Positions 6,552 to 46,598 are shown, numbered from the stretch's first letter. The stretch is 64,000 bases of DNA from an uncultured delta proteobacterium (GCA_963794325.1 CAWCDG010000004.1:1600001-1664000), one strand, 5' to 3'. Notes: generated by a model not told the origin, from the sequence alone. A program made the numbers and translations.

Positions 6552-6652
6552 CTAGGTTTCTTTTAGTCAGTTCAAATAAAAGATACTACTTCGCATTACT
6601 AACTGGAGTACCTACTGAGTAAGGGCGCAGGGGCCGGAAGCTCCGCGCGGAT

Positions 6653-6700
6653 TGTAAAATATACAAAATTGTAAAAGCTACATACTATATAAAATATACA
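6653..6700. promoter_or_regulatory. Three tandem TGTA-N5-TACA palindromic boxes (candidate transcription factor or enhancer sites)
   Basis: TGTAAAATATACA 6653-6665, TGTAAAAGCTACA 6670-6682, TATAAAATATACA 6688-6700 in an AT-rich intergenic patch. Confidence 0.55.
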
Positions 6701-23383: not shown

Positions 23384-23384
23384 G

Positions 23385-26772: not shown

Positions 26773-28209
26773 TCAGTTACCGTGATGTCGCGACGACTCG
26801 CTCGACGACTCGCGATCCTTCCCCTGGTAGCGAACCAGCCGGTTGTAGAGCGTCTTTAAACTGATCCCGAGAATTTGAGCGGCGCGCACTTTATTGCCGT
26901 TGGTAAAATCCAGCGTCTTGAAAATGAACTCGCGCTCGACTTCGTCCAGCGACTCTCCGATGCGCAATTCGAAATGAGGTCCCTTGCGGCCGGCACGCCT
27001 GACGTCGACCGGAAGATCGGCGGCCGCGAGCAGAGGCCGTCGTGCAACGATAGTGGCGCGCTCGATCACGTTTCGCAGTTGCATTACGTTGCCGGGCCAT
27101 CGAAACAAGCGAAGAATTTCCAGACATTCGTTGTCGACGCCGGTCACCGATTTTCGATTGTTCTGCGCGGACTGTGCAACAAACGCCTCGACCAGCGCCG
27201 GAATATCTTCGAGCCGATCGCGCAGCGGCGGCAGTTCGATGGTGAAAGTATTGAGTCTCGAATATAAGTCTTCGCGCAATCTGCCGTAGTGAGTGGCCTC
27301 CGCCAGACTTTTGCTCGAAGACGCGATCAGGCGAACATCCAGCGACGTTTCGTTTCCGTTGCTGGCGCCGAGCCGGCGGAATTTCCTTTCCTCGATCGTT
27401 CGCAGCAGCTTGGCCTGGAGTTCGATCTTCAGCTCGGTAATTTCGTCGAGCAGGAGGGTACCGCCATTGGCCATCGCCAGCAGTCCTTCGCGGCGCCGTG
27501 CGGCTCCCGCAAAAGCGCCGGGCTCGTGGCCCCACAGCTCGCTCTCCATCAGGTCGTGCGGCAATCCCGAGCAGGTGACGGCGACGTATGGATCATTGCG
27601 GCGCGCCGACAGCTCGTGAATCGTCCGCGCCACGATTTTCTTGCCGGTTCCGCTTTCTCCGACGATCGACACCGAGGCGGAACTCGACGCCGCGGCTTCC
27701 TCGACCAGCCTCATCACGCGACGCATCGCGGGCGATTGCCCGATGATTGGTCCAAGCGTGCCGGCCTCGATCAACTTTCGCCGGAGACGCTGGTTTTCCT
27801 CGCTCACTCTGAGTTGAGTCATCAATTCGTTCAAGAGCACGCGCAGATTGGTCGGATTGATCGGCTTGGAGACAACGTCGTAGGCGCCGGGCTTGGTGAT
27901 GGGTTCTTTTGAACGAAGGTCGGCCTCTTCGGCCATCACGATCGTCGCGACTTCGACGCCGCGTGCTTGCAATTCACCTAAAACGGTCTCGCCGTCTTTC
28001 TGATGTGCTTTCAGATCGATCAGAAGGACATGCGGCGAAAACGACTTGGTCTTTTCGAACACCTGATTGCCCGCGACGGCCTGAACCACAAAGCCCCACG
28101 AGTTGATCAGGTCGCGCAATTTCTCGCGGCCGGACTGGTCATCCGCGACGACGAGAATGCGGAGGTCACGGTTATTATCTGACGTGTTGGAGGTTGCTGG
28201 CATCGTCAT
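26773..28209 (-). CDS. NtrC-family regulator (REC-AAA+-Fis HTH) with degenerate activation motifs
   Basis: ILVVADD...LLIDL...SKP; GESGTGKK; ESELWGHEPGAFAGA; LLLDEI; WPGNVMQLRN; GNKVRAAQILGISLKTLYNRL. Start at 28209 or 28203. Confidence 0.88.
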   Translation of the reverse strand: MTMPATSNTSDNNRDLRILVVADDQSGREKLRDLINSWGFVVQAVAGNQVFEKTKSFSPHVLLIDLKAHQKDGETVLGELQARGVEVATIVMAEEADLRSKEPITKPGAYDVVSKPINPTNLRVLLNELMTQLRVSEENQRLRRKLIEAGTLGPIIGQSPAMRRVMRLVEEAAASSSASVSIVGESGTGKKIVARTIHELSARRNDPYVAVTCSGLPHDLMESELWGHEPGAFAGAARRREGLLAMANGGTLLLDEITELKIELQAKLLRTIEERKFRRLGASNGNETSLDVRLIASSSKSLAEATHYGRLREDLYSRLNTFTIELPPLRDRLEDIPALVEAFVAQSAQNNRKSVTGVDNECLEILRLFRWPGNVMQLRNVIERATIVARRPLLAAADLPVDVRRAGRKGPHFELRIGESLDEVEREFIFKTLDFTNGNKVRAAQILGISLKTLYNRLVRYQGKDRESSSESSRHHGN

Positions 28210-28218
28210 TGAATAAGC

Positions 28219-28234
28219 AGCAACCGATGTGCCA
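28219..28234 (-). promoter_or_regulatory. Sigma-54 promoter of the NtrC-like gene
   Basis: Minus strand TGGCAC-ATCGG-TTGCT (consensus match); predicted +1 near 28208. Confidence 0.72.
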
Positions 28235-28381
28235 TGCGGTGGTCGAGAAAAAGCCCCCTGAATCCCCGAGAAAATAATTCGAGAAAATCGCCTCTTAAGT
28301 AAGAAATACATAATTTTAGATATTCGCCTTCTGTGCGAGATTAGAAAGGCTTTATTCCCAACATCTTTTAGTCGCCATTTC

Positions 28382-31322: not shown

Positions 31323-31497
31323 CAGAATCTGCCCGCGTCACGATGCTTTGCACGGACCGTAGGCATCCCCGCCGGGAATCATGTAATTGTTGCTCTGTCG
31401 CTATGATTTTCCTGACGTTTGACGTGATGCGCCGGGCTCATTGCGAACCGGCATCGCGCGGACTAAAAGCAGTGAGCCTGATGCGGCTGGAGCCAGC

Positions 31498-33318
31498 ATG
31501 CCTGCGAACCGACTAAGAAGGAGTCTTTCCACCACAATCGTGGTTCCCGCGATCCTGATGGCTCTGGCAGTCATTGCGCTGATGTGGGAATTGCGCCGCC
31601 AGATGATCGAAACCGATTGGGTCGAGCATACTGATCGCGTAATGCTGCTGGTCGAAACCGCGAAAGCCGAATTTTTGTCCGCGCAGGAGGCGCTCAGGAA
31701 TTTCCTTCTTGCTTCAGACCAGACCCACCGCGGTCCGATCGAGAAAAATTGGAACGATAGCCAGGATATGGTCCGGCAACTTGCCGCGCTCGTTTCCGAC
31801 AATCCGACCGAGGAACAACGGGTGAAACTCCTCAACGGCCTCGAGAATCAATGGCTTGAAGCCGTCCGTGACGTGGATCAGAACTCGACCGATGCGGCGA
31901 AAGGTGATCTGTTCCAGCGCGCGACCACGATCGGGACCGAAGTGTTGAATGAGTTCGACGCGTTTTCGGCGGCTGAACAGGAGTTACGGACCGCGCGAGA
32001 CGCGCAACGAGATTTGCATTATCGCGTCGCAATCTGGGGCGTCCCCATCTCTGCGTTGATCCTGGTCATCGGACTCACGGTGGTGGCGTCGCGAGAGATC
32101 CGAAGCGCCAGCAATACGTTCGCCGGAGCGTTGAAAGAAGCGGAGGCGGCGAATCAGGCGAAGACGAATTTTCTCGCGGTCGTCTCCCATGAGTTGCGCA
32201 ACCCGCTGAATTCGATCCTGCTCTGGTGCAACGCGCTGCTCACCAGCGGAACGCTCGAAGGAAAAGTCGATCAAGGAGTCAGAGCAATCTCCCGCGCCGC
32301 CAAGGGCCAGGCGCAGCTCATCGAGGATCTGTTGGACATCTCACGGATCGAAAGCGGCCAGATGCGATTCGACGTGCAACCTGTCAATCCGGCAGAGATT
32401 GTGCGCGCGGCGGTGGACAGCATGAGTCCCGCCGCCGACGCGAAGTCGATTACGATGCAAGTCGTTCTGGATCCGCGCGCGGACGCCGTCATGGGCGATC
32501 CACAACGGCTGCAGCAGGCGGTGTGGAATATCCTGTCCAACGCGATCAAGTTCACGCCCAAGGGCGGCAAGGTGCAGGTGCGCCTCGAGCGAATCAATTC
32601 GCACCTCGAGATTGTTGTCGCCGACAACGGCCGGGGGATCGACCATCGCGAACTCGAAAATGTTTTCGATCGCTTTTGGCAGGCCGCCGGCCCGCACAGC
32701 ACCGAGCGCGGGATGGGCCTGGGTCTTTCCATCGTCAGGCACATTGTAAATCTTCACGGCGGCACGGTCAGTGCTCATAGCGACGGCCCTGGAAAGGGAA
32801 GCGTTTTCATAATTCGCCTTCCGCTTCCGGTTACCACCGCCGGATTGACGAGTCCTGGGCGCCGGCATCCGACGGCGACGCTCACAGGCCAGAGCGCCCG
32901 AGTCCTGCGTCTCGAAGGCATTTCCGCGCTGGTCGTCGATGACGGCCCGGAGACTCGCGAAGCGTTGCGGTCGTTGCTGACGACGCTCGGCGCCAGCGTC
33001 AAGACAGCGGACACTGCGGAGAGTGCAATCGCCTGTCTGACGGAGTCGAAGCCCGACGTGCTCATCTCCGACCTCGGGATGCCCGGTCGCGACGGCTACT
33101 CGCTGATCAAGGAGATTCGGGCGCGTGAACAAGAGACAGGAGCAGTTGAGCATCTGCCGGCCGTTGCACTGACCGCATACGGACGCGTTGAGGATAGGGT
33201 CGAAGTTCTCTCGTCAGGCTTCGACAGCCATGTCGTGAAGCCCGCCGATCCCGCGGAGCTGGCAGCTGTGATCAAAAGATTGGTTAAAGCGCGCAGCTCA
33301 GGCAGCGACGATACCTAA
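31498..33318 (+). CDS. Membrane hybrid histidine kinase (CHASE3-HisKA-HATPase-REC)
   Basis: WVEHTDRV, LVSDNP (CHASE3); FLAVVSHELRNPL; NILSNAIKFT; DNGRGI; GMGLGL; REC LISDLGMP. Confidence 0.92.
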   Translation: MPANRLRRSLSTTIVVPAILMALAVIALMWELRRQMIETDWVEHTDRVMLLVETAKAEFLSAQEALRNFLLASDQTHRGPIEKNWNDSQDMVRQLAALVSDNPTEEQRVKLLNGLENQWLEAVRDVDQNSTDAAKGDLFQRATTIGTEVLNEFDAFSAAEQELRTARDAQRDLHYRVAIWGVPISALILVIGLTVVASREIRSASNTFAGALKEAEAANQAKTNFLAVVSHELRNPLNSILLWCNALLTSGTLEGKVDQGVRAISRAAKGQAQLIEDLLDISRIESGQMRFDVQPVNPAEIVRAAVDSMSPAADAKSITMQVVLDPRADAVMGDPQRLQQAVWNILSNAIKFTPKGGKVQVRLERINSHLEIVVADNGRGIDHRELENVFDRFWQAAGPHSTERGMGLGLSIVRHIVNLHGGTVSAHSDGPGKGSVFIIRLPLPVTTAGLTSPGRRHPTATLTGQSARVLRLEGISALVVDDGPETREALRSLLTTLGASVKTADTAESAIACLTESKPDVLISDLGMPGRDGYSLIKEIRAREQETGAVEHLPAVALTAYGRVEDRVEVLSSGFDSHVVKPADPAELAAVIKRLVKARSSGSDDT

Positions 33319-33345
33319 GCAAGATAGTTAGCTAGCAGCTTTTCG

Positions 33346-33759
33346 TTACTGAACAGGTTCGGGTCTTTCCCGGTGGATCAATCCGACGTGACGCGCGAGC
33401 AACTGCCAGTTTCCGCCGCGCTTCGTCCATACGTTCATGTAGCTGACAAACAGTTTGAACTCGGTGGTATCTGCTATCAGCTGAGAGATCTCGCTGCCGG
33501 TGGTGACGACCAAATTGTCGAACACCGTGATGCGGACCGGCTTGCGTTCATAGATGCGCAGCTTGAGCCGTCCGTTTTTGATCATTTCAAGCAGGATTTG
33601 TTTTCCCGCGATCAGATTCGCGGTGCTGTTGACGACCAGGTCGTCGGCCCACAGCGTCTGCAGCGCTGACGCGTCGGCAGTTAGCATCGCCCTCGCTTCC
33701 CGCTGTTCCAATGCTTCGATCTCGCTTCGTTCCGCGATGATTGATTCTTTCGTATTCAT
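33346..33759 (-). CDS. NTF2-like / DUF4440 protein
   Basis: EIEALEQREARAM...DASALQTLWADD...YMNVWTKRGGNWQLLARH. Confidence 0.8.
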   Translation of the reverse strand: MNTKESIIAERSEIEALEQREARAMLTADASALQTLWADDLVVNSTANLIAGKQILLEMIKNGRLKLRIYERKPVRITVFDNLVVTTGSEISQLIADTTEFKLFVSYMNVWTKRGGNWQLLARHVGLIHRERPEPVQ

Positions 33760-34142
33760 GGCGTTGGCCCTCGCCTGCAATAATGACCTACGGACGTGAG
33801 CAACCGATCAACATCCACCGGTTTAATAATGATTTCGTTGGCGTCTACGTCGGCGCGATCGCTCAAAGCGGTAACGACGATTACCGGGATGTGTGCCAGT
33901 CGTGGGTTCTTGATTTGTTCCGAGCGGAAATGCCAGCCGTCCATCACCGGCATCCACAAATCGAGGATGATCAAATCGGGCGCCGATGCCTGATCCAGGT
34001 AGTCGAGAGCCTCTCTGCCATTGCCGGCAGGAACTGCCTGATAGCCCTTCATCTGCAAAAGGGCGACCATCGCGTCGCGCGCGTCTTCGTCGTCTTCGAC
34101 GACGAGGATTTTGGGTTCCTCTCGTTCTTCGTCGTCGTGCAT
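33756..34142 (-). CDS. Single-domain response regulator
   Basis: ILVVEDD, PDLIILDLWMPVMDG, VVTA, IKPVD. Confidence 0.9.
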   Translation of the reverse strand: MHDDEEREEPKILVVEDDEDARDAMVALLQMKGYQAVPAGNGREALDYLDQASAPDLIILDLWMPVMDGWHFRSEQIKNPRLAHIPVIVVTALSDRADVDANEIIIKPVDVDRLLTSVGHYCRRGPTP

Positions 34143-34330
34143 CGAATCTAATTCTACAAGATACAGGACTCGGGCCAATACTCACTGGATATTTTTCACT
34201 GCGCGAAGGTCAATATTCACCGACTCCGCCAGCGGGAGGGGCTGATTCTCCACGGTAAACCTTTCTCAGTTACCGATTGACCAGAGGGTCGCGAGAAAAG
34301 AAAACTTCGAGTTTGCTATCCTTTTGCTTT

Positions 34331-34346
34331 TGGCCTGCATCTTGCT
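34331..34346 (+). promoter_or_regulatory. Putative sigma-54 promoter of the MEDS kinase
   Basis: TGGCCT-GCATC-TTGCT, about 110 bp upstream of ATG 34456. Confidence 0.55.
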
Positions 34347-34455
34347 GCCTGTTCGAGGGGAACCTTTGTCTTCAGTTATAGGTCGAGATGCGCCAAGAGT
34401 TTGACCACGACTCCCCCGCTGCCGATCCCTTGAGGCTGACGCAGGAGAATCGCCG

Positions 34456-36657
34456 ATGAGCGCGGCGCGGTTTGAGTCGGGCTCCAGTGCGGCCTCATTC
34501 GCGTCGCCGGCTTCATGGACGGACGTCAATCCACATTCGCATCTGGTTCAGTTTTACGAAAGTGACGGATTTCTTATCGACGCATTGGCCCGCTGGTTCG
34601 CCGACGGCCTCAACGGCGGCGATAGTTGCGTATTCGTCGGCACCGAATCGCATCGCATCAGCCTTGAAAAAGAACTTGCGGATCGAGGCTTCGATCTCGA
34701 TCGCACAAGCGGGCGCTTCGTCTGCGTCGATGCGTCACAAGTGCTTTCGACTTTCATAGTCGATGAGTGGCCGAACGGGGATTTGTTCGCTCGCGCGATC
34801 GAAGGTGTTCTGGGCCGCGTGTCTAAATCACGCGAGCTTCGTGTATTCGGCGAGATGGTGACGCTGCTCTGGGCCGACGGGAGACGGCAAGCGGCGGTCC
34901 GCCTCGAAGAGATGTGGAACGCCTTCATGAAGACGCACGCGCTCTCATTGTGCTGCGCGTATCCTCTTCACAGTTTCGGCTCCGATGCGGATGCGTCGTT
35001 GTTTCTAAAAGTCTGCGCGCAGCATACTCCGGTCCTGCCCGCCGAGAGTTACACCGCGCTGACCACGGAGGCTGAACGTCTTCGCGCGATAAGTCTGCTG
35101 CAACACAAAGCGAGTGTCCTTGAAACCGAGAAAGCCGGACGCAAGGAAGCCGAGCAATCGCTTCACCTGCGTCAAAAAGAGCTTTCGGATATCATCGAGA
35201 ACGCGCTCGAAGGAATCCATCAGGTTGGTCCGGAGGGAAAAATTCTGTGGGCTAATCCGGCGCAGCTCAAACTGCTCGGCTATGCGGCCAACGAATACAT
35301 CGGCCATGACCTCGCCGAATTCTACGTTGACCGCAAACGGTTCGATGAGTTCTGGAAGCGGCTCAGGCGCGGCGAGATCATTTACGACTTTGCGGCGGCG
35401 CTGCGATGCAAAGACGAATCGATCAAGGAAGTTCTCATCCATTCGAGCGGGCTGTGGGAAGACGGCAAGTTCCTGTACACCCGATGCTTCATTCGGGACG
35501 TGACGGAAGGCGTCGAACTGGAGCGCGAACTCAAAATAAGGCTGGCGGAACTCGCTCAGGCCGATCAGCGCAAGAACGAATTTCTCGCGATGCTCGGCCA
35601 CGAGCTTCGCAACCCGCTGTCCGCAGTGCTGGACGCTATCGCGACGGCGCAGCTCGACCAGACTCGCCGCGAACGCGCTCTGACCATCGCACGCCGGCAG
35701 ACCGATCAGCTCGCGAGGCTGGTCGATGACCTGCTCGACGTCGGACGAATTACGCAGGGCAGAATCGTCCTCAAGAAGGAAGCGATCAAGGTCGCCAGCA
35801 TCCTCAAGCAGGCGGTCGAAGAAGCCCAGTGTCTGGTCGAACCCGGTCAGCATCAGTTGTCCGTTAGGATCTCGTCGGGCGCCGACGAAGCTGTGATCGA
35901 GGCGGACCCGGCGCGCATGCGTCAGGTGATCGCCAATCTTATACACAACGCGGCGAAGTTCACTCATGCGGGCGGGCGCATCGACGTGCTGGCTGAGCGC
36001 GCCGACAATGAGATCGTCCTGCGGGTGCGCGATTCCGGCATCGGCATCGCGCCGGACCTGCTGCCGCGGGTATTTGATCTCTTCACGCAGGCCGAGCGTC
36101 CGCTTGACCGATCGCACGGCGGCTTGGGCATCGGCCTGACCCTCGTCCAGCGGCTGGTCGAGATGCACGGTGGCCGCGTCGAGGCGTATAGCGCGGGCCC
36201 CGGGATGGGCAGCGAGTTCGAAGTCCGCATCCCCGCCGCTTCTAATTCTCGTCCGCAGGCGACGGCGACCGTAAACCAAGGCGAGGATCACGGGCATCTG
36301 CGAATCGTGATCGTCGAAGATAATTTCGACGCCGCCGAAGCGCTGAAGATGTTGCTCGAGCTGTTCGGACACCAGACCATCGTGGTTGAGAACGGCTTGG
36401 CTGCGATCGAAGTGGTCCGTCACGGCGCGTTTGACATGGCGCTGGTGGATATAGGATTGCCGGGCATCGACGGTTACGAAGTGGCGCGCCGGATCAGAGC
36501 AATCCCAAACGCAAAGACCATGACGCTGATAGCGCTGACCGGCTACGGCCAGGAAACCGACAAACAGCGCGCCCTCTCCGCCGGCTTCGACGAGCATCTG
36601 ACCAAGCCAGTAAAAATCGAACGCCTGCAAGCCGTCCTGAACCGCCCCCGCTATTAA
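34456..36657 (+). CDS. Cytoplasmic hybrid histidine kinase (MEDS-PAS-HisKA-HATPase-REC)
   Basis: HLVQFYESD, RVFGEMVTLLW, LCCAYP (MEDS); PAS ILWANPAQLKLLGY; LAMLGHELRNPL; REC LVDIGLPGIDG. Confidence 0.92.
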   Translation: MSAARFESGSSAASFASPASWTDVNPHSHLVQFYESDGFLIDALARWFADGLNGGDSCVFVGTESHRISLEKELADRGFDLDRTSGRFVCVDASQVLSTFIVDEWPNGDLFARAIEGVLGRVSKSRELRVFGEMVTLLWADGRRQAAVRLEEMWNAFMKTHALSLCCAYPLHSFGSDADASLFLKVCAQHTPVLPAESYTALTTEAERLRAISLLQHKASVLETEKAGRKEAEQSLHLRQKELSDIIENALEGIHQVGPEGKILWANPAQLKLLGYAANEYIGHDLAEFYVDRKRFDEFWKRLRRGEIIYDFAAALRCKDESIKEVLIHSSGLWEDGKFLYTRCFIRDVTEGVELERELKIRLAELAQADQRKNEFLAMLGHELRNPLSAVLDAIATAQLDQTRRERALTIARRQTDQLARLVDDLLDVGRITQGRIVLKKEAIKVASILKQAVEEAQCLVEPGQHQLSVRISSGADEAVIEADPARMRQVIANLIHNAAKFTHAGGRIDVLAERADNEIVLRVRDSGIGIAPDLLPRVFDLFTQAERPLDRSHGGLGIGLTLVQRLVEMHGGRVEAYSAGPGMGSEFEVRIPAASNSRPQATATVNQGEDHGHLRIVIVEDNFDAAEALKMLLELFGHQTIVVENGLAAIEVVRHGAFDMALVDIGLPGIDGYEVARRIRAIPNAKTMTLIALTGYGQETDKQRALSAGFDEHLTKPVKIERLQAVLNRPRY

Positions 36658-36660
36658 CCT

Positions 36661-38511
36661 CTAGACATTCCGCGACCGCTTTAGCGAATACATCCGCATG
36701 GTGCCGTAGTTCTTGGCGGCGGGAACCTGTCCAACATACTCGCACGTGAATTTTGCATTGGGAGTTGTTGCCAAAGCCGCCGCGAACGCTTCGGTCGCAT
36801 ACACCGAACCTTCCGGGGTTATCGGCTCGATTCGGGCTGCCCGGCAAACGTGGGCTCCGGTGAAGCATATGCGCTTGAGGACGGGATCGCGCAGTCGATA
36901 CACCGGGCCAAGGTGAGTACCCAGCCGGAGCGCCAGGTCGGGCAATCCGACGCGCTTGAAATCGAATGCCGCCATCGCTTCCTGCAACTCAATTGCAACG
37001 CTCGCCGCAGTTTCAACGTCGGCTATGGTAACCGACAGGCCGTCGCCCCAGGTGTTACGGTACAAGATTTTACGCCCGTGCCGGCCAAGAACGCGCGCGA
37101 ACATGCCGATCACTTCGCGCGTGAAAATCGGCATCTGCGGCTCGCTAAGTCTGCTGAACCACTTGATGTCGCCGAAGAGCATCGCACGAATTGTGCGATC
37201 GCCGGGCTTGCGCACCATTTGACGTGGCGCAGGGCTACTCGCCCTGGCAGCCTTGCCAACCGGAGTCGGCCGAATGACTTCGCTCATAAGTCCGAGCTTT
37301 CGCCAGCGGTATACATCGGCGGCGGTGCCGATGAGGCCGCGATGCTCGCGCGCCGGCATTCCGTCCCACACCACGATTTGACGGACCTTGCTATCAAGAG
37401 AACGCGCGTGCAGCGTTGCCAATCCCATCGCCATCTCGCTGGCGTAAGCGAACAGACCTTCTTCACTGAAGTGTTGGTCGGTGGTGGCGTAGGTGACGCT
37501 TTTGGCTGCCGAGTAGCATGAGTCAAAGCGCGGCAGCCACGACTTACCGGCGCGCGCCACTGAGACTCGCTTGAACTCCTCGAGGCCGAACGGCATCGTG
37601 ACGTTCAATTCGGCGCCTTTGCGCAGCAGTTCCTCCGCAAACAGAATGTCAGCGCCCGCGGCCAGCGAACCATAGCCGAAACCCACGTCGTGCCTGCGCA
37701 ACGCAGCCGCAATCTGATCGCGCACACTGGACTCGCTCGCTTGCGGAAATCGCGGACCGGGCAGATGGCCGGCGTAGTAGATTACCGACGGCACCGAGAT
37801 CGCTTCGAGCACTTCGGGCGCGATTCCGCGTGCCGCGCAGACCAGTTTGAGCTGCCGTCGCGTCGTCGCAATCGACGAAAAATCGCGGCCGGTGGCGAGC
37901 GCGGCGGCGCGCAAAGCGCTCCCTGCGCTGCCAAGGTCGCCGATGATCAGCGCCGCCTCGGCCTCTGTGGCGCGGGCGAAGTATTCGTCGGTGCTTCCGC
38001 CGGCATGGCCGCCGGCAAAGATCTTCAGCACTTCGCGAGCGAGCGCCTGCGCGCTTCGTAAATCACCGCCAAGAAGCTTGAGGGTCGCCGCGTTGATTCC
38101 GGGATAGTATGCGCCCGTGCGCCGGAAGATATCGTTGTAGCGGCCCGCGGCGATGGCGAGCAGCCGCTTCCGCTTCGGCCCGATTTCCTGAAGAGCCTGG
38201 TCCTTGGCTATGCGCGCATCGAGCGCGGCGACATCGATAGTGAAAGCATCGGCCGGCCGATCGGCGATCAAATCGCCGAGCTTGAACCGGTCGTAGCGAG
38301 TGCGAGCCTGCCGGGTCGCCCCGGTCCTCGCGAGCGCAAGTACAGCGTTGTACCGGAGAACGGAGTCATCCGGATATTCTTCAAGCGCGCGATCCGCGAG
38401 GTCGAACGCCTGAAGCAATTCCCCGCGCGCATTAGCGTCATGGATTTCGGAGATCCATGCGCCAACGGATTTCGAAGGCACGGACACTTTCGAGCTGCTC
38501 TCGTCTGGCAT
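36661..38511 (-). CDS. TPR (TPR-S/TRAF-binding-like) - SLOG-like - class III nucleotide cyclase fusion
   Basis: Helical N-terminus (VLALARTGA, YYPGINAATL, YFARATEAEAAL, STTRRQL-like SIATTRRQL); SLOG-like YYAGH...GYGSLAAGADILFAE...VTMPF...VWDG...GTAD; cyclase MLFGDIKWFSRL, NTWGDG, LRLGTHLGPV, RAARIEP. Confidence 0.8.
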   Translation of the reverse strand: MPDESSSKVSVPSKSVGAWISEIHDANARGELLQAFDLADRALEEYPDDSVLRYNAVLALARTGATRQARTRYDRFKLGDLIADRPADAFTIDVAALDARIAKDQALQEIGPKRKRLLAIAAGRYNDIFRRTGAYYPGINAATLKLLGGDLRSAQALAREVLKIFAGGHAGGSTDEYFARATEAEAALIIGDLGSAGSALRAAALATGRDFSSIATTRRQLKLVCAARGIAPEVLEAISVPSVIYYAGHLPGPRFPQASESSVRDQIAAALRRHDVGFGYGSLAAGADILFAEELLRKGAELNVTMPFGLEEFKRVSVARAGKSWLPRFDSCYSAAKSVTYATTDQHFSEEGLFAYASEMAMGLATLHARSLDSKVRQIVVWDGMPAREHRGLIGTAADVYRWRKLGLMSEVIRPTPVGKAARASSPAPRQMVRKPGDRTIRAMLFGDIKWFSRLSEPQMPIFTREVIGMFARVLGRHGRKILYRNTWGDGLSVTIADVETAASVAIELQEAMAAFDFKRVGLPDLALRLGTHLGPVYRLRDPVLKRICFTGAHVCRAARIEPITPEGSVYATEAFAAALATTPNAKFTCEYVGQVPAAKNYGTMRMYSLKRSRNV

Positions 38512-38584
38512 GATGAGTAACCTTCGAACAAGCAGGTACCGACTTTCGGCACGAAAATCTTATCGAGTGATGGGCGAATCTGGA

Positions 38585-40527
38585 TCACTGTGCGCGGAGC
38601 CGGTCCAGCGAGAGCTTCGCCATCTGATGTCCCTGGGCAGCCGCCAACTCGTACCACTTCAGAGCTTCGGTGCGATCGATCGGCACTCCCCAGCCGCTCT
38701 CGTACAGCTTTCCGAGATTATATTCCGCGGAAGCATTTCCTTGCGCCGCTGCTCCTTGATACAGCGGGATTGCTGCTGAGTAGTCCTGACTGACGCCCTG
38801 GCCCTGACAGTACATGGTGGCGAGTCTGTTTTGCGCGGCCGCCAGTCCTTGCGCCGCTGCTTGACGATACCAGTTTGCTGCTTCGGCATAGTCCGGCCCG
38901 CCTCCGACCTGGCCGGCTTCGTACATGTAGCCGAGATTGTTTTCAGCTTCGGCATTTCCTTGCGCCGCCGCCTTACGATACCAGGTTGCCGCCTGGTCAA
39001 AGTCGGGACCGGTTCCGACTTGGCCTTTTTCATACATATAACCGAGATTCGCTTCGGCTTGGGCGTCACCCTGCGCCGCCGCCTCTCCGAACCATTTGAG
39101 TGCGGTAGTATGATCGCCCAAGCGCTGGGCGGCGTCGCCAAACGCAATTAGCTGAGGCGCGGTATGGGCCCGAGCCAAATCATTGGAACCGCCGGTCCCA
39201 ATCGATTCAACCATTGTACTTGCGAAGCGGTCTGCCATCGACTGCACGTCGGCGGTAGATCCTTTAAAAATTTTCCCGGAGAGCCTTCTGCGTTGTGCGA
39301 CGTCGTATAGATAAACGGTTAGATCCACCGTCGAGCCATTCGACGCTGACCATTCCCTTGACCAGAAAATCGGCCGCGATTGAACTCCAGGGGCTGAAAT
39401 CGAACTGCCCCAACTCATAAGCCGGACTGCTGCGCATCCTGATGGTAGGACTGTGCACCGATCAGATCGAAGGAACCCAGGTTAAGCAGAGAACGCCGCA
39501 CCACCTCAACAAAGTTCTCGCTCACCCGGCCATCTTCATCGCCGCCACCATTTTTCAATGGCGAAATCGCGATACGGGGGAGGTGCGACACGGACGCCGA
39601 TTCGCGAGCAGGAGCTGGCGGCTCTATCGTCGCGAGTCTCTCAGGAGCAGCAGGCGCTATCGTCGCGAGACTCTTCGGTATCGCAGCAGCCTCGGATTTG
39701 GCTTGCGCGACCGCCTCTGCCGCTTTGCGCTTGCGCTCCTTCTCCGTCTGTGCGGCCTTCTGCGCAGCCTGTGCCTGCTCAGCGACCGCGCGTTTTCGAG
39801 CCGTATCCTCGGCCAGCGCGCGTTCTTTCTGGGCCTGCGCAGCGTTCTCCTCTCGTTGCTGCGCGGCCGCGCTTGCTCTCTCAGCCGCCGCAGTCTGCTC
39901 GGCGACACGTTTGCGGAGCAAATCCTGCTGCGCAACGTAATATCGCGCGCCGAAGAAGGCAGCGGTTCCGACGAGTGCAATCGCCAAAGCCGCAATCGAG
40001 GGAGCGATCCACTTCGGACGCGGTCGGGCGCGGGCGATTATCTCTGGCGGTGTTGCAGCACTAAACTCATCGCGAGCAGGCGGCGACGGTCGCGGCGTCT
40101 CCGAAGCGACACGATCGCTCTCGATACGTTCGAGCCAGAATTTAGCGGAATCCGCAATCCCCTCAAGGTGCCGCTCGAACGGCGGCGTGATCGCGTCGAG
40201 CCAGTGCGGTGTGCCGAGAAAATATTCGAGGTCGCCGGACGGCTTCACATTCTCGACCCGCACCGGAACGACGACGAGGCCCTTGCTGACCGCGCGTTCC
40301 ACTTCGCGGCTTACCTGCGGAGACCCGTTGGCGTGCGACGAAAACAAAAGCAGCATCACGCGTGCGGCGTCAATCGCCTCGACAATCGCGGTGCCCCAGC
40401 TCATGCCGGGACGGATGTCGCGCGGCGCGATCCAGCATCGGATGCCGCGTGATTCGAGCTTCGCGCAGACTCCATCGGCATACGGTTTGTCCCGAGCCGA
40501 ATGGCTTATGAATACGTCGTGAGCCAA
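38585..40527 (-). CDS. TIR - TM - Ala-rich coiled coil - TolB N-terminal-like - Sel1 protein, split by two apparent +1 frameshifts (about 39420 and 39341)
   Basis: ORFs 39415-40527, 39264-39458 and 38585-39418 join to ...QDAQQSG/YELGQFDFSPWSSIAADFLVKGMVSV/NGSTVDLTVYLYDVAQRRRLSGK...; TIR DVFISHS...SREVERA; Sel1 AxxNLGYMYExG. Confidence 0.75.
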
Positions 40528-40769
40528 AGAGCTGGTCTTCTCCCATTCGGCGCTCGAATAGCCGAGAAAGATGTCGTTCCCGTCTTTAACCGTTGGTGTC
40601 TTCTCAAAACTCCAAGGGTAACCGAATGTCTAGACGATTTGACTTAACAATCGCAATAGACTAGCAAGATGGCAATCTTCAATCGTGCTAGCTTCCGTAG
40701 GGCTCGGATCCTAGTGAGGCTGTTGCGGAACCCGCGAGAAAAATTCCGGCCTTACGTTTGGGGGAAGCA

Positions 40770-41228
40770 ATGAACAGAATGGCCGCAATCGTCGCGACAG
40801 CGGCAGTATTGATGTGCTTGTCTTCGTGCGCATTGGTGTTTCACGGAACCAACGAAGATGTAACTGTTACCAGCGATCCTCCCGGTGCTACGGCTACGCT
40901 CAGCACTGGGGAGACGCGCGTGACACCATTCGCGGTGACAGTTCCAAGGAAGCAGAACCTTGAGGTCCACTTCGCTAAACCAGGCTATAATCCGACCGAT
41001 GTTACCGATGAATCGCAGATAGAGGCCGGGTACCTTATAGTTGATATCCTTACCTTCGCATGGCCGTATGACGCAGCTTCCGGCGCTTATTTTTCCCATC
41101 AACAATCTACAATTGAAGCAAAACTAGTCCCCATTGAAACTGGGGCACCTGGCGGGCCGGCGCGCGCAGATTCACAACTGCCGCAAGGAAAAGTATCTAG
41201 CAGCGTTGCGGGCGAAGATACGAACTAG
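40770..41228 (+). CDS. PEGA-domain-like lipoprotein
   Basis: Lipobox LSS-C; VTVTSDPPGA, TP, FAKPGY, YDAASGA. Confidence 0.72.
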   Translation: MNRMAAIVATAAVLMCLSSCALVFHGTNEDVTVTSDPPGATATLSTGETRVTPFAVTVPRKQNLEVHFAKPGYNPTDVTDESQIEAGYLIVDILTFAWPYDAASGAYFSHQQSTIEAKLVPIETGAPGGPARADSQLPQGKVSSSVAGEDTN

Positions 41229-41278
41229 TCGAGAAAAAACCGCAATGAGCACGACGGACTCGTGCGGGGGAATTGCTC

Positions 41279-41962
41279 ATGAGGAATTGCGTGACTGGCC
41301 TAACCGTTAGCACCGCTTCAGCGCTTGTCGCTGCGGTCGCTGGAGCCTTGGCTGCGACAGTGTTCCTTAGCGGATGTGCCTTTACAACCGGGCATGTCAA
41401 TCTCGACTATCAGTCCCAGGTAGCCCCTACGAAATTCGCAGTGGCAAATTCCCCTCACATAAGTGTGGCGGTCACTGACAAGCGCCCCACACAGGTGGTG
41501 GGTCATAAGATCAACGGATACGGAATGAAGACCGCAGAGATCGTATCCGACAGCGATGTTCCTGCAACGGTCAAGAAAGCATTCGACCAGGAGCTGGAAG
41601 CGCGCGGATTCACACCGGGGACGGGCGGCATTCTTGTCGCGGTCAGCCTGAACGATTTCGAGAGTGAATACTCGACTGGCTGGTTTTCGGCGCAAGCCAC
41701 CGCGAATATGGGTATGGACGTGAGCGTTGTGCAGACCGACGGCACAATCACCTTCGAAAAGCATATTACGGGGCATAACGAGGAGTCAGTCATGACCTCG
41801 GGCGAGGGGAACGCGCAGGTAGTCCTCAACGCGGCAATGCGCGATGCTGTTTCCAACGTCTTTGGCGACCCCGCCTTCCTTAACGCTCTAATGGGGCACG
41901 GCCAATCCAGCGATCATAGGTCTGCCTCAGAGAGCTCCATCCATAGTCTCTCAGGAAGCTAG
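41279..41962 (+). CDS. YajG-like lipoprotein
   Basis: Lipobox LSG-C; VAVTDKR, ELEARGF, LNDFESEY. Confidence 0.6.
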   Translation: MRNCVTGLTVSTASALVAAVAGALAATVFLSGCAFTTGHVNLDYQSQVAPTKFAVANSPHISVAVTDKRPTQVVGHKINGYGMKTAEIVSDSDVPATVKKAFDQELEARGFTPGTGGILVAVSLNDFESEYSTGWFSAQATANMGMDVSVVQTDGTITFEKHITGHNEESVMTSGEGNAQVVLNAAMRDAVSNVFGDPAFLNALMGHGQSSDHRSASESSIHSLSGS

Positions 41963-43761
41963 CGAGCCTTCTGGAGCCGCTCCAGACCTTGCTTCGCATC
42001 TGGTTGTCCTTGCGCGGCGGCTTTTTCATACCACCAAAGGGCTATAGCGGTGTCCTCGGCAATACCCCAGCCGTTCTCGTACATAGCACCGATGTTGTTT
42101 TCTGCATCGGCGTTGCCTTGTTGCGCCGATTGGCGGAACCAGTTCACTGCCGCGGAATAGTCTCTGTCTACGCCGAAGCCATTGAGGTACATCAGACCGA
42201 GGTTGTTCTGGGCTGCGGCATTTCCCTGTTCTGCCGCTTTGCGGAACCACTTCACTGCTTGGGAATCGTCTTTCTGTACTCCCCAGCCGTTCGAGTACAT
42301 GACGCCCAAGTTGGCCGCGCCCATTGCGTTGCCCTGTTGCGCCGCTTCGAGGAACCACTTCATTGCGGCGGAATAGTCCCTATCTACGCCGAATCCATTA
42401 AGGTACAAAACGCCTAGATTGACCTCGCCTTTGGCGTTACCCTGTTGCGCTGACTCGCGAAACCACTTCACTGCCTCAGAATTGTCTTTCTGCATGCCCC
42501 AGCCCTCGGAATACATCACGCCGAGGCTAGCTTGGGCCTCGGCGTCACCTGCTGCGGCTGCGTCTTCATAGTCCTTCAGGGCTACACTATAGTTTCGTTC
42601 CTTTAGCGCAGCGCTAGCCGAGGCGACGATAGCGACGTTTTTTTGCCGCGCGGCCTCCTGCTCTTTCTTGCGGGTCTCCGCTTCTGTCTCTTCGCTTACT
42701 GTTGGTTCGCCTTCTGCGCCGGCTTGGACGTGGGTCGACTGCTCATCGTTGCGGGCCTGCGCTTCCGCCGCCTCGCGTGCTTTCGCCTCCGCATCTTTGC
42801 GAGCCTGGACCTCGATTGCTTGTTGACGCTTACGAGCAACTGCATCCGCCTCTTTGCGCTGTTTCGCTTCGGCTTCTTTGCGGAGTCGGGCCTCGGTCTC
42901 CTGTTCGCGCTTGCGAGTTTCAGCTTCGGCCTTTTCCCGCGCTCTCACATCCGCATCATTGAGGCCCTGACTGTTTGCAGTTCCTGGTTCCTTGGCAGTC
43001 GGAGGCTCCTTTTGCGACTCGGTCGCGCGTTTTTGCGGGGCGCGAGCCGTGGCGACGGCCGGCTGGTTGGCTGGTTCTTGCGCCGACTTCTCTAGGGCTT
43101 CGTGGTATTGGAAGCCCAAAAGTACGACAGCAGCGAGCGCGGCCACGGCTAGTACAGCGATCAAGACCTTACGAAGAGTGAACGAGACCGTCGGTGCGGA
43201 AATTACCGCCGCGGGTTCCAGATGAATTACCCTTGGCGAAGAAGGCATCGCACCACCACGGGTCACTCCGGGCGGAACCTGCGACGCAGGCGCTTTAGTA
43301 GATCGTTCGGTTGTTGCCCCGGTCGCCGATGGAGATGCGTTGCCAGAATGGCTCCCCATGCGATCCAGCCAGAACCTCGCGGAGTCGGCAATTTTGTCCA
43401 AGTGCTGTGCGAACGGCGCTGTGATCGCGTCGAGCCAGTGCGGTGTGCCGAGGAAATATTCGAGGTCGCCGGACGGCTTCACGTCCTCGACCCGGACCGG
43501 CATGACGACGACACCCTTGTTCACGGCGCGTTCTACTTCGCGGCTGATCTGCGGAGACCCGTTAGCGTGCGACGAGAACACCAGCAGCATCACGCGCGCG
43601 CCGTCGATCGCTTCGATAATCGCGCTGCCCCAGCTCATGCCGGGGCGGATGTCGCGCGGCGCGATCCAGCATCCGATGCCGCGCGACTCCAGCTTTGCGC
43701 AAATCCGGTCGGCGAAGGGCTTGTCCTTAGCCGCGTGGCTTATGAAGACGTCGTGAGCCAT
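41959..43761 (-). CDS. TIR - TM - charged coiled coil - Sel1 repeat protein
   Basis: TIR DVFISHA...SREVERA...WLDA; TM VLIAVLAVAALAAVVLLGF; E/A/K/R coil; about 5 Sel1 repeats. Confidence 0.9.
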   Translation of the reverse strand: MAHDVFISHAAKDKPFADRICAKLESRGIGCWIAPRDIRPGMSWGSAIIEAIDGARVMLLVFSSHANGSPQISREVERAVNKGVVVMPVRVEDVKPSGDLEYFLGTPHWLDAITAPFAQHLDKIADSARFWLDRMGSHSGNASPSATGATTERSTKAPASQVPPGVTRGGAMPSSPRVIHLEPAAVISAPTVSFTLRKVLIAVLAVAALAAVVLLGFQYHEALEKSAQEPANQPAVATARAPQKRATESQKEPPTAKEPGTANSQGLNDADVRAREKAEAETRKREQETEARLRKEAEAKQRKEADAVARKRQQAIEVQARKDAEAKAREAAEAQARNDEQSTHVQAGAEGEPTVSEETEAETRKKEQEAARQKNVAIVASASAALKERNYSVALKDYEDAAAAGDAEAQASLGVMYSEGWGMQKDNSEAVKWFRESAQQGNAKGEVNLGVLYLNGFGVDRDYSAAMKWFLEAAQQGNAMGAANLGVMYSNGWGVQKDDSQAVKWFRKAAEQGNAAAQNNLGLMYLNGFGVDRDYSAAVNWFRQSAQQGNADAENNIGAMYENGWGIAEDTAIALWWYEKAAAQGQPDAKQGLERLQKAR

Positions 43762-43899
43762 TTCCCCCCTGATTCATGTTGTTTAAATCAGACCGGCGCC
43801 GGAAAACATAGGGCGGCGAATATCGATAGCAGCGCGCGACGAGTCTCGCTCGGAATCACTACCGCACTTGCAGGGAAGCTCTGGTTTAGCGGTACGAAA

Positions 43900-45249
43900 T
43901 CAGCGCCGGGGAATTATGCTCAAAAATTGCTGCAACACCGCGGATTTCTGCTGTTGCTCTTGCAAAGCCTCTTGTTGAGCCTGCTGCTGAGCTTGCTGTT
44001 GTTGCTGGGCTTGCAAGGCTGCTTGTTGCGCCGCCTGTTGTTGCGCCAACTGTTGCTGTCGTTGTTGCTCAAGCGATGCCTGTTGCTGCGCCTGTTCTGC
44101 CCGGGCACGTTCCTGCGCGGCCGCGGCTCCTCGTTCTCTTGCGATTTCGTCCGCTGCTCGCCGGGCTCTAACCTTCGCTTCTTCCGCCCGAGCGCTTGCC
44201 TCCTCGGCCTCTGCCTTCTCTGCTTCGGCTTTCGCCTTCGCTTCTTCCGCGTGTTCCTTGGCTACGAGGTCGGTGCCGATCGAGAAGGATCGGCTTGCGA
44301 GTTCGCGATCGCCTGAGTACAGCGAAAATTTATAAAGCCCGGGCTTTTGCGCTATCGAATCTGAAAGTGGGATGACACCCGCGACTGACGCGTCGCCATC
44401 CGCGGATTTGGTGACCCGGCGAACACCTCCCGCAGCGATCTGGAGTCCTGCGGGATCGTAGATTCGTGCTTCGATTGGCGAGTCAGCCGAAGCGCTGGCA
44501 GCCCATGCCAGGTTTGGGGCCGCGCGCAATTGAGTATCAAGGAACGATCCCTGGTCTTGCGTCAGCGGAACTCCGTCGGCGGATGCCAATTGGAGGCGGA
44601 TCGCCGCATCGAGATGCTGTTCCTTGGCGCCGCGTGAGATCGAGTAGAAATGCCCGGCCAAGAAGCCAACAGCTATCAGGACGCTCAGGGCGCCGGCGAA
44701 CGCAAACATTCGCGTGAGCTTGCCGCTCCAACCCGGCCCCGCGCTCAGCGCCTTCATCCGCTTGTCTGCGATCCTCGCCGCTTTGCGATCGACCTCAGGC
44801 TCGATTCCGTAGGACGTCGCGGCGGGTCTGGCCAAGTTCGCAGAGGTCGCTCGGGTCATGCGTTGGAGTGCCTGCGCGAGCTCCTCAAAATGACTCTCGA
44901 TCCGACCCTCTGAGGCATCCAGCCATTGGCTGCTGCTCACGAAATATTCCAACGAGGCAGACAGCGGGACAGATTCGACGCGGAACGGCAGAACGGGAAT
45001 ATTACGGCTTACGGCTCGCTCCACTTCGCGCGGAACGTGAACCGATTTGTTGGACAGCGCGGAGACGATCACGATCATCGCGTGCGCCTCCGTGATTCCT
45101 TCCATGATCGATCTGGCATAGTCGGCGCCGAGCGGTACGTCGCGAGGCGCTATCCAGCATTGGATGTTGCGAGCCTCCAGATCTTTGCAGATAGCCTCGG
45201 CGCATGGTTTGTCATGCGAGGCGTAGCTGATGAAGACATGTTGGGCCAT
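43900..45249 (-). CDS. TIR - TM - unknown periplasmic domain - Ala/Gln-rich tail protein
   Basis: TIR HVFISYAS...CWIAPRD...PREVERA...QWLDA; TM FAFAGALSVLIAVGFLAG; PGLYKFSLY; QQQ-rich C-terminus. Confidence 0.85.
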   Translation of the reverse strand: MAQHVFISYASHDKPCAEAICKDLEARNIQCWIAPRDVPLGADYARSIMEGITEAHAMIVIVSALSNKSVHVPREVERAVSRNIPVLPFRVESVPLSASLEYFVSSSQWLDASEGRIESHFEELAQALQRMTRATSANLARPAATSYGIEPEVDRKAARIADKRMKALSAGPGWSGKLTRMFAFAGALSVLIAVGFLAGHFYSISRGAKEQHLDAAIRLQLASADGVPLTQDQGSFLDTQLRAAPNLAWAASASADSPIEARIYDPAGLQIAAGGVRRVTKSADGDASVAGVIPLSDSIAQKPGLYKFSLYSGDRELASRSFSIGTDLVAKEHAEEAKAKAEAEKAEAEEASARAEEAKVRARRAADEIARERGAAAAQERARAEQAQQQASLEQQRQQQLAQQQAAQQAALQAQQQQQAQQQAQQEALQEQQQKSAVLQQFLSIIPRR

Positions 45250-45602
45250 GGCGCCGCTGTGACTCCCTTGCCGGCTCGGTTAGGTCAGCGCTGATCGCGA
45301 TCTGAGGAAGCAATTCGACAAAATCGGCACGTCCCCTTTTTCGGCGGTTGCTCGTCCCACTGCAAGTGAACAGGGACGCTGATTCGCCCCCATTGTCCGA
45401 AATTCACCTGAGCATATCGCCCAGCGAAGTTAAGTCAAGGCGTAGCCTACGTAAGAGTTTCGCTAGTGAATTTACAAGACGACAATTTGATATAGAGCCC
45501 CTTAGTCGGGATTTGCAGGGGAAAGCTCTGGCTAGTGGAGGTTCACCGAGCAGGCTGCTTCGTGGATCTTCGAACAGCGATCTCGCTTACAATCCAGGAA
45601 AA

Positions 45603-45960
45603 TGGTGGAGGCGGGGGGAATTGAACCCCCGTCCGAAGGCCTTCCGGCGACGGCCACTACACGCTTAGTCTGCGAATTTTAGCTCGCGTCCGGAACGCCC
45701 ACAGACGGGCTTTTCGTACGCCAGCCGGCTGAAATTTCGGTAAGCCGCCCAGCCGGTGAACTGCGGTTCCCTAGCCCACTAAATGACGCCCCGACCCGCT
45801 GCCATGGGCGAACAGCGGCGGGACGCTAGCGGCCCTTAGGCCGCCAGAGCGTAACCGTTATTGTCTGCGGGTAAATTTCGCAGTCTGCCAGTTTTACGGG
45901 TCGACAGCACCCGGCGTGCGACCATGGCCATGTTGTCTTCGTCGAATCCAGTTCGCCCCC
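45603..45960 (-). ncRNA. ssrA: tmRNA; tag reading frame ADNNGYALAA* at 45868-45836
   Basis: 5' GGGGGCGAACTGGATTCGAC; 3' GGTTCAATTCCCCCCGCCTCCACCA; tag ending YALAA; divergent from smpB. Confidence 0.95.
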
Positions 45961-46099
45961 ACGATAGTGGGTTTTCCATACGAGGCCAGTCAGAGGTCGA
46001 AACGGTTACATCTCTAATCTAAGGCCCAGCGGCCGCGTTCGCAACCACTCCTCGCGCCCCCTTATCCACGTCGCCATATGCGGATAAACTCAGCCTGAT

Positions 46100-46598
46100 A
46101 TGGTTCGCGATTCTCAAACGCGCAACGGTAAACCGTCCGCCGACGGATTCGACCTGGTGGTCGATAACCGCAAGGCCCGCCACGACTTCTTCATCGAGGA
46201 AACGCTCGAGGCCGGCCTCGCGCTCACCGGCACCGAGGTCAAATCGCTGCGGGCGCATCGCGCAAATCTTCGCGACAGTTACGCGCGCATCAAGAACGGC
46301 GAGGCGTTCCTCGAGAGCGTCCATATCGGCGCCTACGCTCCCGCCGGCCAGTTCAGCCACAAGGAAACTCGCCCGCGAAAACTCCTGATGCATCGCCGCG
46401 AGATCGATAAGCTCTGGGGCCGCGTGCGCGAGAAGGGCTACTCGATCGTCCCACTTGAAAATTTATTTCAAAAACGGACGCGCCAAGGTCGAACTCGGCC
46501 TCGCCAAGGGCAAGCACTCGTACGACAAGCGCGACGCGCTCGCGCGCAGAGCGTCGGATCGGGAAATCGAGCGCGCCCTGAAAGGACGCAACCGCTAG
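46100..46598 (+). CDS. smpB: SsrA-binding protein SmpB (apparent +1 frameshift near 46456)
   Basis: [33 protein letters not shown]; removing one T restores [26 protein letters not shown]...RNR*. Confidence 0.92.

Follow-up and report, generated by a model that had tools for sequence, protein, structure and literature searches.

A block of five minus-strand open reading frames (ORFs A, B, C, C2 and D) at positions 36661–45249 of a 64,000-nt stretch from a soil bacterium, an uncultured delta proteobacterium (GCA_963794325.1, CAWCDG010000004.1:1600001-1664000; the whole stretch is hereafter the window), very likely encodes, judging from sequence comparison across genomes, a functional module that pairs membrane TIR proteins (A, B and C) with a single protein, D, in which a TPR-S region and a predicted SLOG-fold domain precede a class III nucleotidyl cyclase fold. 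It is held with moderate confidence that the TIR proteins are receptors for cues outside the cell and would make a signal derived from nicotinamide adenine dinucleotide (NAD), which the TPR-S/SLOG part of D would read and its cyclase would convert to a cyclic nucleotide.

The pairing of TIR genes with D is supported by its recurrence across genomes. Homologs of D are of uniform length (1,999 word-index matches), and the family has 4,455 representatives at E ≤ 1e-3, 3,099 at E ≤ 1e-10 and 1,622 at E ≤ 1e-30. Using loci from the best 80 of 568 confirmed matches, one species each, and a TIR model seeded with A, B and C and refined through three iterations on the ORFs of these loci, a TIR gene was found anywhere in the fetched sequence of 51 loci, within 2 kb of D in 47 and within 500 bp in 40, which supports the functional linkage of TIR and cyclase genes proposed in an earlier note made from this DNA alone. 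Among the 54 loci that extend at least 3 kb to either side of D, the corresponding counts were 41, 38 and 31, and the outer flanks (more than 3 kb from D; 808,125 bp) held only 6 TIR genes. By record titles, these loci come from Actinomycetota and Pseudomonadota, from a Binataceae genome and a cyanobacterium, and from other hosts. Clustering of all neighbours within 6 kb of D returned only two recurring families, the TIR genes (48 loci) and a set of 18 genes from 18 loci that is described below with the cyclic-nucleotide tier.

TIR partners of D share an architecture as well as a position. Pfam TIR_2 was present in all 39 partners scanned, which represent 39 of 42 first-round matches after exclusion of two near-copies of other Arenimonas loci (L004 and L005) and one ORF overlapping D. 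Twenty-seven of the 39 combine TIR with WD40, at loci mostly from the Actinomycetota, two are TIR-TPR and there is one each of TIR-Sel1, TIR-nSTAND1-WD40 and TIR-NACHT-FGE-sulfatase; six have no second Pfam domain and one carries its TIR at the C-terminus. A single hydrophobic 19-mer (Kyte-Doolittle mean ≥2.0) lies a median of 70 residues past the TIR domain, usually after an Arg-rich stretch, in 44 of 53 assessable partners, including all 23 TIR-WD40 proteins assessed; the exceptions include three STAND-type proteins. Beyond the helix there is a beta-propeller, TPR or Sel1 module, and one helix after the TIR domain followed by a repeat module is the rule for the D-linked TIR family. The absence of a signal peptide and the charge pattern point to an N-in, C-out topology. 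The column of Glu75 holds glutamate in 57 of 58 D-linked TIR sequences, and no cyclic mononucleotide (cNMP)-binding domain occurs in the 39 partners among the Pfam matches listed.

The TIR proteins in the window follow the same plan. Three TIR receptors had been described in the earlier note, and each of A, B and C does have TIR_2 and one helix, but the third proved to be split into C and C2. The catalytic-position glutamate that was said to be kept is present as Glu75 in the motif REVERA common to A, B and C; a catalytic role for this TIR glutamate is described in the text of PMC7075850. B and C share 77% identity across the first 146–151 residues, a stretch that includes the TIR domain, while the TIR domain of A is 42–46% identical to those of B and C. 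With the predicted topology, the cytoplasmic portion of each would consist of the TIR domain and a linker of about 50 residues and nothing else. The proposal that each receptor bears a different extracytoplasmic module did not hold, as the Sel1 repeats at the end of B and of C2 are 50% identical. Within B, the Sel1 array shows repeats at a 108-nt period (42002–42531).

ORF C2, in which neither a membrane helix (by hydropathy) nor a signal peptide was found, is probably the displaced C-terminal part of C, through a frame break that is either real or an assembly error. The TGA stop of C overlaps the ATG start of C2 as ATGA, with C2 in another frame, and the end of C aligns to residues 208–253 and the start of C2 to residues 283–328 of a TIR protein in the Binataceae genome (E 0.003 each, in a small database). 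Because two parts of one post-membrane domain are matched, C and C2 look like a single frame-broken gene, and the same pattern is seen against a protein of the congener G014. The third reading frame is open for 40 codons across the junction; a pair of frameshifts there was considered but gained no support, since the third-frame peptide gave no BLASTP alignment to the missing middle of the domain. No contig from four soil-metagenome runs (one study, short contigs) spans 39170–39624. Gene C also contains a 33-nt tandem duplication (39609–39674; 85% identity).

Protein D, which lacks a membrane helix, combines two domains of ligand-sensor type with an output enzyme. The TPR and class III cyclase assigned to it in the earlier note were recovered above the Pfam cut-offs, with TPR-S (PF20308) at residues 34–144 (45.6 bits against a cut-off of 27.6, E 1.1e-11) and Guanylate_cyc (PF00211; 28.2 bits against 21.9, E 1.8e-6); no Pfam match to a CMP-hydrolase or nucleoside deoxyribosyltransferase was found in D. 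An AlphaFold2 model from 30 homologs (pLDDT 85.9, pTM 0.84) places an alpha/beta domain at residues 242–413 and a cyclase-type domain at 439–612. Sequence searches with the middle domain (36 sequences) returned only scattered chance-level matches in Pfam (E ≤ 10) and none among profiles of the Protein Data Bank (PDB). The model of this domain folded alone, from the same number of sequences (pLDDT 89.8), has YpsA as its best match (Foldseek E 3e-6; VIA Z 18.1, with 160 residues aligned at 3.0 Å), and all ten Foldseek matches at E < 0.001 are YpsA, DprA or TRPM2. Further VIA Z scores were 13.3 for DprA, 13.0 for ShosA, 10.4 for LOG, 10.1 for the TRPM2 N-terminal region, 9.9 for the molybdenum cofactor (Moco) carrier protein, 6.8 for the ThsA SLOG domain with 3' cyclic ADP-ribose (3'cADPR) and 6.1 for 2-deoxyribosyltransferase. 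From its predicted structure the middle domain is of the SLOG-superfamily fold, YpsA/DprA type, in agreement with the SLOG-like domain suggested from the sequence, and with it the four domains expected from profile and structure comparison (TIR_2, SLOG, cyclase and Sel1) were all found. The alignment of homologs has an invariant loop, G281..G286-x-D288, and this Gly-rich loop followed by Asp (G-x-x-x-x-G-x-D) resembles that of the YpsA/DprA families. By their PDB titles, SLOG relatives among the structural matches (TRPM2 entries and 7uxs) have ADP-ribose or 3'cADPR as ligands.

The C-terminal domain of D matches class III cyclases in Foldseek (E ~1e-8, TM 0.67–0.84). D448, D490 and K600 are invariant and R560 nearly invariant among 30 homologs, and all four fall at canonical sites in profile alignments to 3mr7 and 3et6; we take D448 and D490 to be the metal-binding aspartates and R560 and K600 to be phosphate-binding positions. 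The second base-specifying position varies among homologs. As the metal-binding Asp residues and the Arg and Lys are kept while the base-specifying and transition-state residues are replaced, the cyclase is probably active, whatever its base preference. A predicted complex of D with a TIR domain scored 0.02 against a mark of 0.32 and is given no weight either way, and the Protein Atlas offered TPR-S clusters as leads and nothing beyond.

There is contextual evidence from the comparative data to suggest a cNMP output, in line with the second messenger tier proposed in the earlier note. The second recurrent neighbour family contains PF00027, the cNMP-binding domain, in 14 of 17 scanned members and in the cluster example (L026). 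A cNMP-binding gene lies within 6 kb of D in 29 of the 80 loci, and the density of such genes, at 5.6, 5.1, 1.6, 0.45 and 0.47 per 100 kb in successive 2-kb bins from D, is about 10 times higher near D than further out; the genome that holds the window has 15 matches in 4.45 Mb (~0.34 per 100 kb). The linked genes encode CRP-type regulators, C39-peptidase ATP-binding cassette (ABC) exporters, patatins, one histidine kinase and one ABC ATPase. Two longer homologs carry N-terminal fusions to the D architecture, Trans_reg_C-BTAD-cNMP_binding in P0175 and Trans_reg_C-BTAD (SARP-type) in P0256, and these fusions suggest a direct transcriptional output in some bacteria. No PF00027 match was found in A, B, C or C2.

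Among close relatives the module is patchily distributed and varies in position. One of 18 congeners (G009) has an intact D at 66% identity and one (G014) a decayed copy; a search of the other 16, and of 12 more genomes in the class, found no D, with only a weak match to an unrelated cyclase domain in one of the 16. Directly upstream of D in G009 there are three co-oriented TIR-membrane genes, with outer parts made of Sel1 repeats, an FGE-sulfatase-like domain and a beta-lactamase-like domain (the last two by motif), together with a fragment like the outer part of A, which is 58% identical to a 204-aa ORF of that module. The G009 locus has no transfer-messenger RNA (tmRNA) gene, its ssrA lying ~870 kb away on the same contig. 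In the Binataceae genome (L001; D at 76% identity), a pair of TIR-membrane-TPR genes lies next to D. The layout noted in the window, with several receptors and one transducer, therefore recurs, and several receptors with one D are conserved in the lineage at differing chromosomal sites. The D homolog of G014 (L090; G014:C6:2474000-2493900) is reduced to fragments with stop codons, and its TIR-membrane genes are still open at 626 aa (Sel1) and 686 aa (TPR). Further away, two Caballeronia megaplasmids carry a full-length relative of D at 31% identity with a different upstream gene of no Pfam family. On one of them (Caballeronia sp. SBC2 pSBC2-4, 1-3581 and 5559-8713) the D homolog is preceded, with a 4-bp overlap, by a 463-aa protein of no Pfam family, and a TIR gene by a DUF4231 gene lies ~3–5 kb from that homolog. 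No D homolog was found in the phage record collection.

The pathway could run as follows. The TIR proteins would be type II single-pass proteins, with the TIR domain in the cytoplasm and the Sel1 and other modules outside the membrane. A ligand or a change in the envelope would cluster the outer modules, bringing the TIR domains together and switching on NAD+ cleavage through Glu75. The product, derived from ADP-ribose, would diffuse to D and be bound by its TPR-S and/or SLOG domain, and binding would promote the dimer needed by a class III cyclase, which would then make a cyclic mononucleotide. The nucleotide would be read by cNMP-binding proteins that are presumably encoded elsewhere in this genome and next door in others, as CRP-type regulators, peptide exporters and patatin lipases. 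The domain content, the folds, the conservation of catalytic-type residues and the linkage of the genes come from the analysis itself, and from these we infer the topology, all the enzymatic activities, the order from TIR to D, the identity of both messengers and the trigger. The order is favoured because the TIR proteins bear their own sensor modules and no cNMP-binding domain among the Pfam matches listed, and because two domains of ligand-sensor type stand ahead of the output enzyme in D. Most of the linked readers are transcription factors and exporters, and we favour a role in sensing an outside or envelope cue, such as microbial conflict or perhaps phage attacking at the surface, over classical abortive infection.

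Several observations weigh against this reading. The module is read from sequence and predicted folds, and the sensor may be either TPR-S or SLOG. Twenty-nine of the 80 loci have no TIR gene in the fetched flanks, and both gene order and strand vary, with 22 of the 40 adjacent pairs sharing a strand, 16 lying on opposite strands and 2 overlapping. The TIR search model was iterated on the same loci that it counts, related species among the 80 loci are non-independent samples, and the helix was called by hydropathy alone. Similarly, the cNMP-binding counts and densities come from a model built on 15 of the cNMP-binding domains found beside D, which it then matches again, and are partly circular, and all ORFs were counted, with possible double counts (L018 and L057). 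No cNMP-binding gene occurs within 15 kb on either side of the block in the window, so any reader here would act in trans. The cyclase domain has an invariant Asn486 in place of the base-specifying Lys or Glu, and Cys556 (Ser in most homologs) in place of the transition-state Asn; these sites are, as we understand them, Lys in adenylyl and Glu in guanylyl cyclases at the former and the transition-state Asn at the latter. The enzyme may consequently be weak, unusual or nucleotide-binding only. Finally, no PADLOC or NCBIfam model recognises D.

Other explanations were weighed against the same evidence. That the TIR genes and D are merely chance neighbours in accessory DNA by ssrA would suit the two unrelated lipoprotein genes that interrupt the block and the difference between congeners in the region beyond ssrA, but is highly improbable given adjacency in 40 of 80 species of several phyla, compared with the 6 TIR genes in 808 kb of outer flank, and its recurrence in G009 at another chromosomal site. 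The order of action could also be reversed, with D sensing the trigger through TPR-S/SLOG and its cNMP activating the TIR proteins as NAD+-depleting effectors. Pairs of a cyclase with a TIR effector are established, as in Pucsar, where cGMP made by PucC activates a cNMP-binding TIR NADase (bioRxiv 10.64898/2026.08.12.744502), and sensor-type domains do precede the cyclase of D. However, the cytoplasmic parts of A, B and C amount to a TIR domain and a short linker, none of the 39 partners has a cNMP-binding domain among the Pfam matches listed, the TIR proteins bear sensor-like modules of their own (beta-propeller, TPR, Sel1), and near D such domains belong instead to CRP regulators, ABC exporters and patatins, which leaves a reversed order improbable.

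TPR arrays usually bind proteins or peptides, and D could be activated by contact alone, with clustered TIR domains binding its TPR-S region and no diffusible messenger. Such a scaffold would have parallels in the Bacillus TIR/TPR pair BcTir/BcTpr, reported in a preprint to act as a complex (bioRxiv 10.1101/2023.05.26.542521), and in the TIR domains of animal Toll-like receptors, which are described as adaptors (PMC7075850). It is nevertheless an unlikely account of the near-invariant glutamate, which points to catalysis and not to scaffolding alone, and of the well-conserved loop of a nucleotide-type SLOG pocket in D, and it would require one D to fit TIR domains as different as those of A and of B and C. 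About as unlikely is classical abortive infection against phage, in which the module would be a further Thoeris type and the cyclase would kill or arrest the cell, for example by draining nucleoside triphosphates or flooding it with cNMP. The patchy distribution among congeners and the class, the differing genome sites and the two linked readers that are patatin lipases, a known effector type, all fit this explanation, and 29 effector types are predicted in the main text of a Thoeris survey (bioRxiv 10.64898/2025.12.03.692087). Outward-facing sensor modules, on the other hand, are ill suited to detecting phage from within the cell. Transcription factors and exporters make up most of the linked readers, SARP activators are fused to two homologs, and there are no known defence, integrase or phage genes within 15 kb on either side and no D homolog in the phage records.

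Compared with characterised systems, the module is closest in its logic to Thoeris, in that a TIR protein bearing the glutamate is encoded beside a protein with a SLOG fold and an Aravind-type sensor TPR. According to the main text of the Thoeris survey (bioRxiv 10.64898/2025.12.03.692087), a TIR product (3'cADPR, cADPR and others) activates the partner, the signal passes to one effector protein in the characterised types, 3'cADPR is sensed by SLOG in type I, and the TPR-bearing effector ThsI of type VIII is proposed to perceive TIR-made cADPR; that main text mentions no cyclase effector. The output of D is a class III cyclase, whereas Thoeris effectors carry SIR2, Macro, a membrane-spanning effector or a CMP hydrolase, and the sensor TPR of ThsI is joined to a CMP-hydrolase that has no match in D alongside TPR-S. 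The SLOG domain of D is of the YpsA/DprA type and far from that of ThsA (Z 18.1 and 6.8), while differing from the YpsA/DprA branch, its best structural match, in having no Pfam or PDB sequence match and in its setting between TPR-S and a cyclase. Further, the TIR proteins here are membrane-anchored with outer modules, and there are several TIR genes per effector. To our knowledge, characterised bacterial TIR systems sense infection from within the cell. PADLOC, to which the earlier note had pointed, gave weak matches at the level of the TIR domain (the ThsB model matches A alone, at ≤18 bits) and nothing for D. Pfam ThsB_TIR matched B and C at 17–20 bits, its cut-off of 21.2 being passed only by C when the counted stretch is included, and an NCBIfam Thoeris model reached 15 bits against a cut-off of 220.

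Pycsar and Pucsar share with the module a class III-type cyclase, a product read by cNMP-binding proteins and the involvement of TIR domains, but there the cyclase acts upstream and the TIR protein is the cNMP-activated effector, while here the TIR partners have no cNMP-binding domain among the Pfam matches listed and TPR-S and SLOG stand before the cyclase. By these sequence comparisons the module falls outside every modelled Thoeris or Pycsar family, and it plausibly works, by analogy, in the manner of Thoeris but with an outward-facing input and an output that are both new. Animal Toll-like and interleukin-1 (IL-1) receptors likewise cross the membrane once, with a repeat-type module outside and TIR in the cytoplasm, and clustering drives their TIR action (PMC7075850). 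They differ in that the TIR domain here is N-terminal (type II), the outer modules are Sel1, TPR or beta-propeller and not leucine-rich repeats or immunoglobulin domains, the NADase-type glutamate is kept and a cyclase takes the place of the adaptor or kinase as partner, such that the resemblance is an analogy of layout and not homology of whole proteins. TPR-S is a curated Pfam family, and links between TPR-S, SLOG, TIR and cyclase domains are said to have been predicted in comparative-genomics papers (Burroughs et al. 2015; Burroughs & Aravind 2020). No description of a TIR and TPR-S/SLOG/cyclase module, or of bacterial membrane TIR receptors, was found in the literature searched; figures and supplements of the Thoeris and Pucsar preprints may list it.

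Features of the block and its surroundings are collected in the table below. The 73-bp gap between C2 and D (38585 and 38511) is as the earlier note gave it, and its estimate of about 350 bp from ssrA to the block was measured as 353 bp to the start of A. The TIR genes do lie on one strand, as claimed, but the block is interrupted by two plus-strand lipoprotein genes between B and C. These have zero homologs in the 80 D loci or the two congener loci and are outside the conserved module. The suggestion of tmRNA as an integration site was not upheld. An island integrated at ssrA was considered and rejected, with no integrase and no att-like repeat found and only a synteny break at ssrA remaining; the 29-nt 3' end of ssrA is a single copy in the window with up to 3 mismatches allowed, no direct repeat of it occurs in 33000–46100, and the G009 module is far from ssrA. 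Two congeners are syntenic on the smpB side and have, beyond the 3' end of ssrA, different DNA with ordinary metabolic enzymes and regulators, and the block is accessory DNA at a synteny break. In the congener G008, 25 nt of the ssrA 3' end recur without mismatch on a different contig (G008:C25:1772-1796), the pattern of an element integrated at ssrA, so the site appears to be used in the genus, though not visibly in the window.

Flanking genes encode two-component sensors and regulators, SmpB, a peptidase, LemA and Hsp20, and the genes scanned within 15 kb on either side included none for an integrase, for phage or for a recognised defence system. Signalling genes are concentrated in the left flank (31441–36657 and 26773–28311). 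A scan for promoters and terminators gave counts the same as the shuffled expectation. The only TIR_2 matches of this genome outside the block are a tandem pair of small ORFs with open frames of 159 and 145 aa (G000:C3:179894-180671).

Table. Features of the TIR–cyclase block and neighbouring genes, with positions in the window unless given as residues (aa, amino acids).
Feature	Position	Strand	Description
Gene A	43900-45249	-	449 aa
A, TIR_2	residues 5-124		Pfam, 75 bits, E 9.2e-21 (cut-off 28)
A, membrane helix	residues ~178-205		One hydrophobic 19-mer after the TIR domain
A, post-helix			Unassigned ~110-aa domain, then Ala/Glu/Gln-rich tail
Gene B	41959-43761	-	600 aa
B, TIR_2	residues 5-113		Pfam, 83.9 bits, E 1.7e-23 (cut-off 28)
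B, membrane helix	residues ~189-221		One hydrophobic 19-mer after the TIR domain
B, post-helix			Lys/Glu/Ala-rich spacer (weak TolA-like), then five Sel1 repeats (Pfam Sel1, 1.1e-50)
Gene C	39415-40527	-	370 aa
C, TIR_2	residues 5-113		Pfam, 81.5 bits, E 9e-23 (cut-off 28)
C, membrane helix	residues ~173-196		One hydrophobic 19-mer after the TIR domain
C, post-helix			Spacer, then first half of post-membrane domain
ORF C2	38585-39418	-	277 aa; second half of the post-membrane domain of C and four Sel1 repeats (Pfam Sel1, 8.6e-40)
Gene D	36661-38511	-	616 aa
D, TPR-S region	37798-38466	-	D ~16-238; all-helical, AlphaFold2 helices 16-238
D, SLOG-fold domain (predicted)	37267-37794	-	D ~240-415; Rossmann-like, YpsA/DprA type
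D, class III nucleotidyl cyclase fold	36676-37197	-	D ~439-612
Lipoprotein gene	40758-41228	+	156 aa, weak PEGA match (Pfam)
Lipoprotein gene	41273-41962	+	229 aa, Lipoprotein_16/YajG-like (Pfam)
tmRNA gene ssrA	45603-45960	-	Neighbour only
CHASE3 hybrid histidine kinase; single-domain response regulator; sigma-54 activator	left flank (31441-36657 and 26773-28311)
MEDS-PAS hybrid kinase	left flank		Convergent with D, 3 bp apart
Glycosyltransferase, acetyltransferase-like, UDP-sugar dehydrogenase-like gene cluster	19609-26762		Probably for polysaccharide synthesis

The wider proposal, put forward tentatively and with rather less confidence than the pathway in this bacterium, is that several phyla possess outside-in TIR receptors with interchangeable outer modules (beta-propeller, TPR, Sel1, lectin-like and PBP-like) for extracellular ligands, whose NAD-derived messenger would act on a TPR-S/SLOG-gated cyclase to yield a cNMP controlling transcription, peptide export and lipases. 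If true, such a relay of two messengers would be a prokaryotic equivalent of Toll-like receptor signalling. TIR enzymes would be wired to outward-facing sensors and an NAD-derived messenger converted into a cNMP messenger, with outputs in transcription, secretion and lipase activity that go beyond suicide only. It would also provide a testable ligand for the widespread TPR-S and YpsA-like SLOG domains. The cytoplasmic TIR domain and D are of soluble size and can be assayed together, and the D family, with 1,622 clusters at E ≤ 1e-30, is tractable for exploring the origin of Toll-like receptor layouts.

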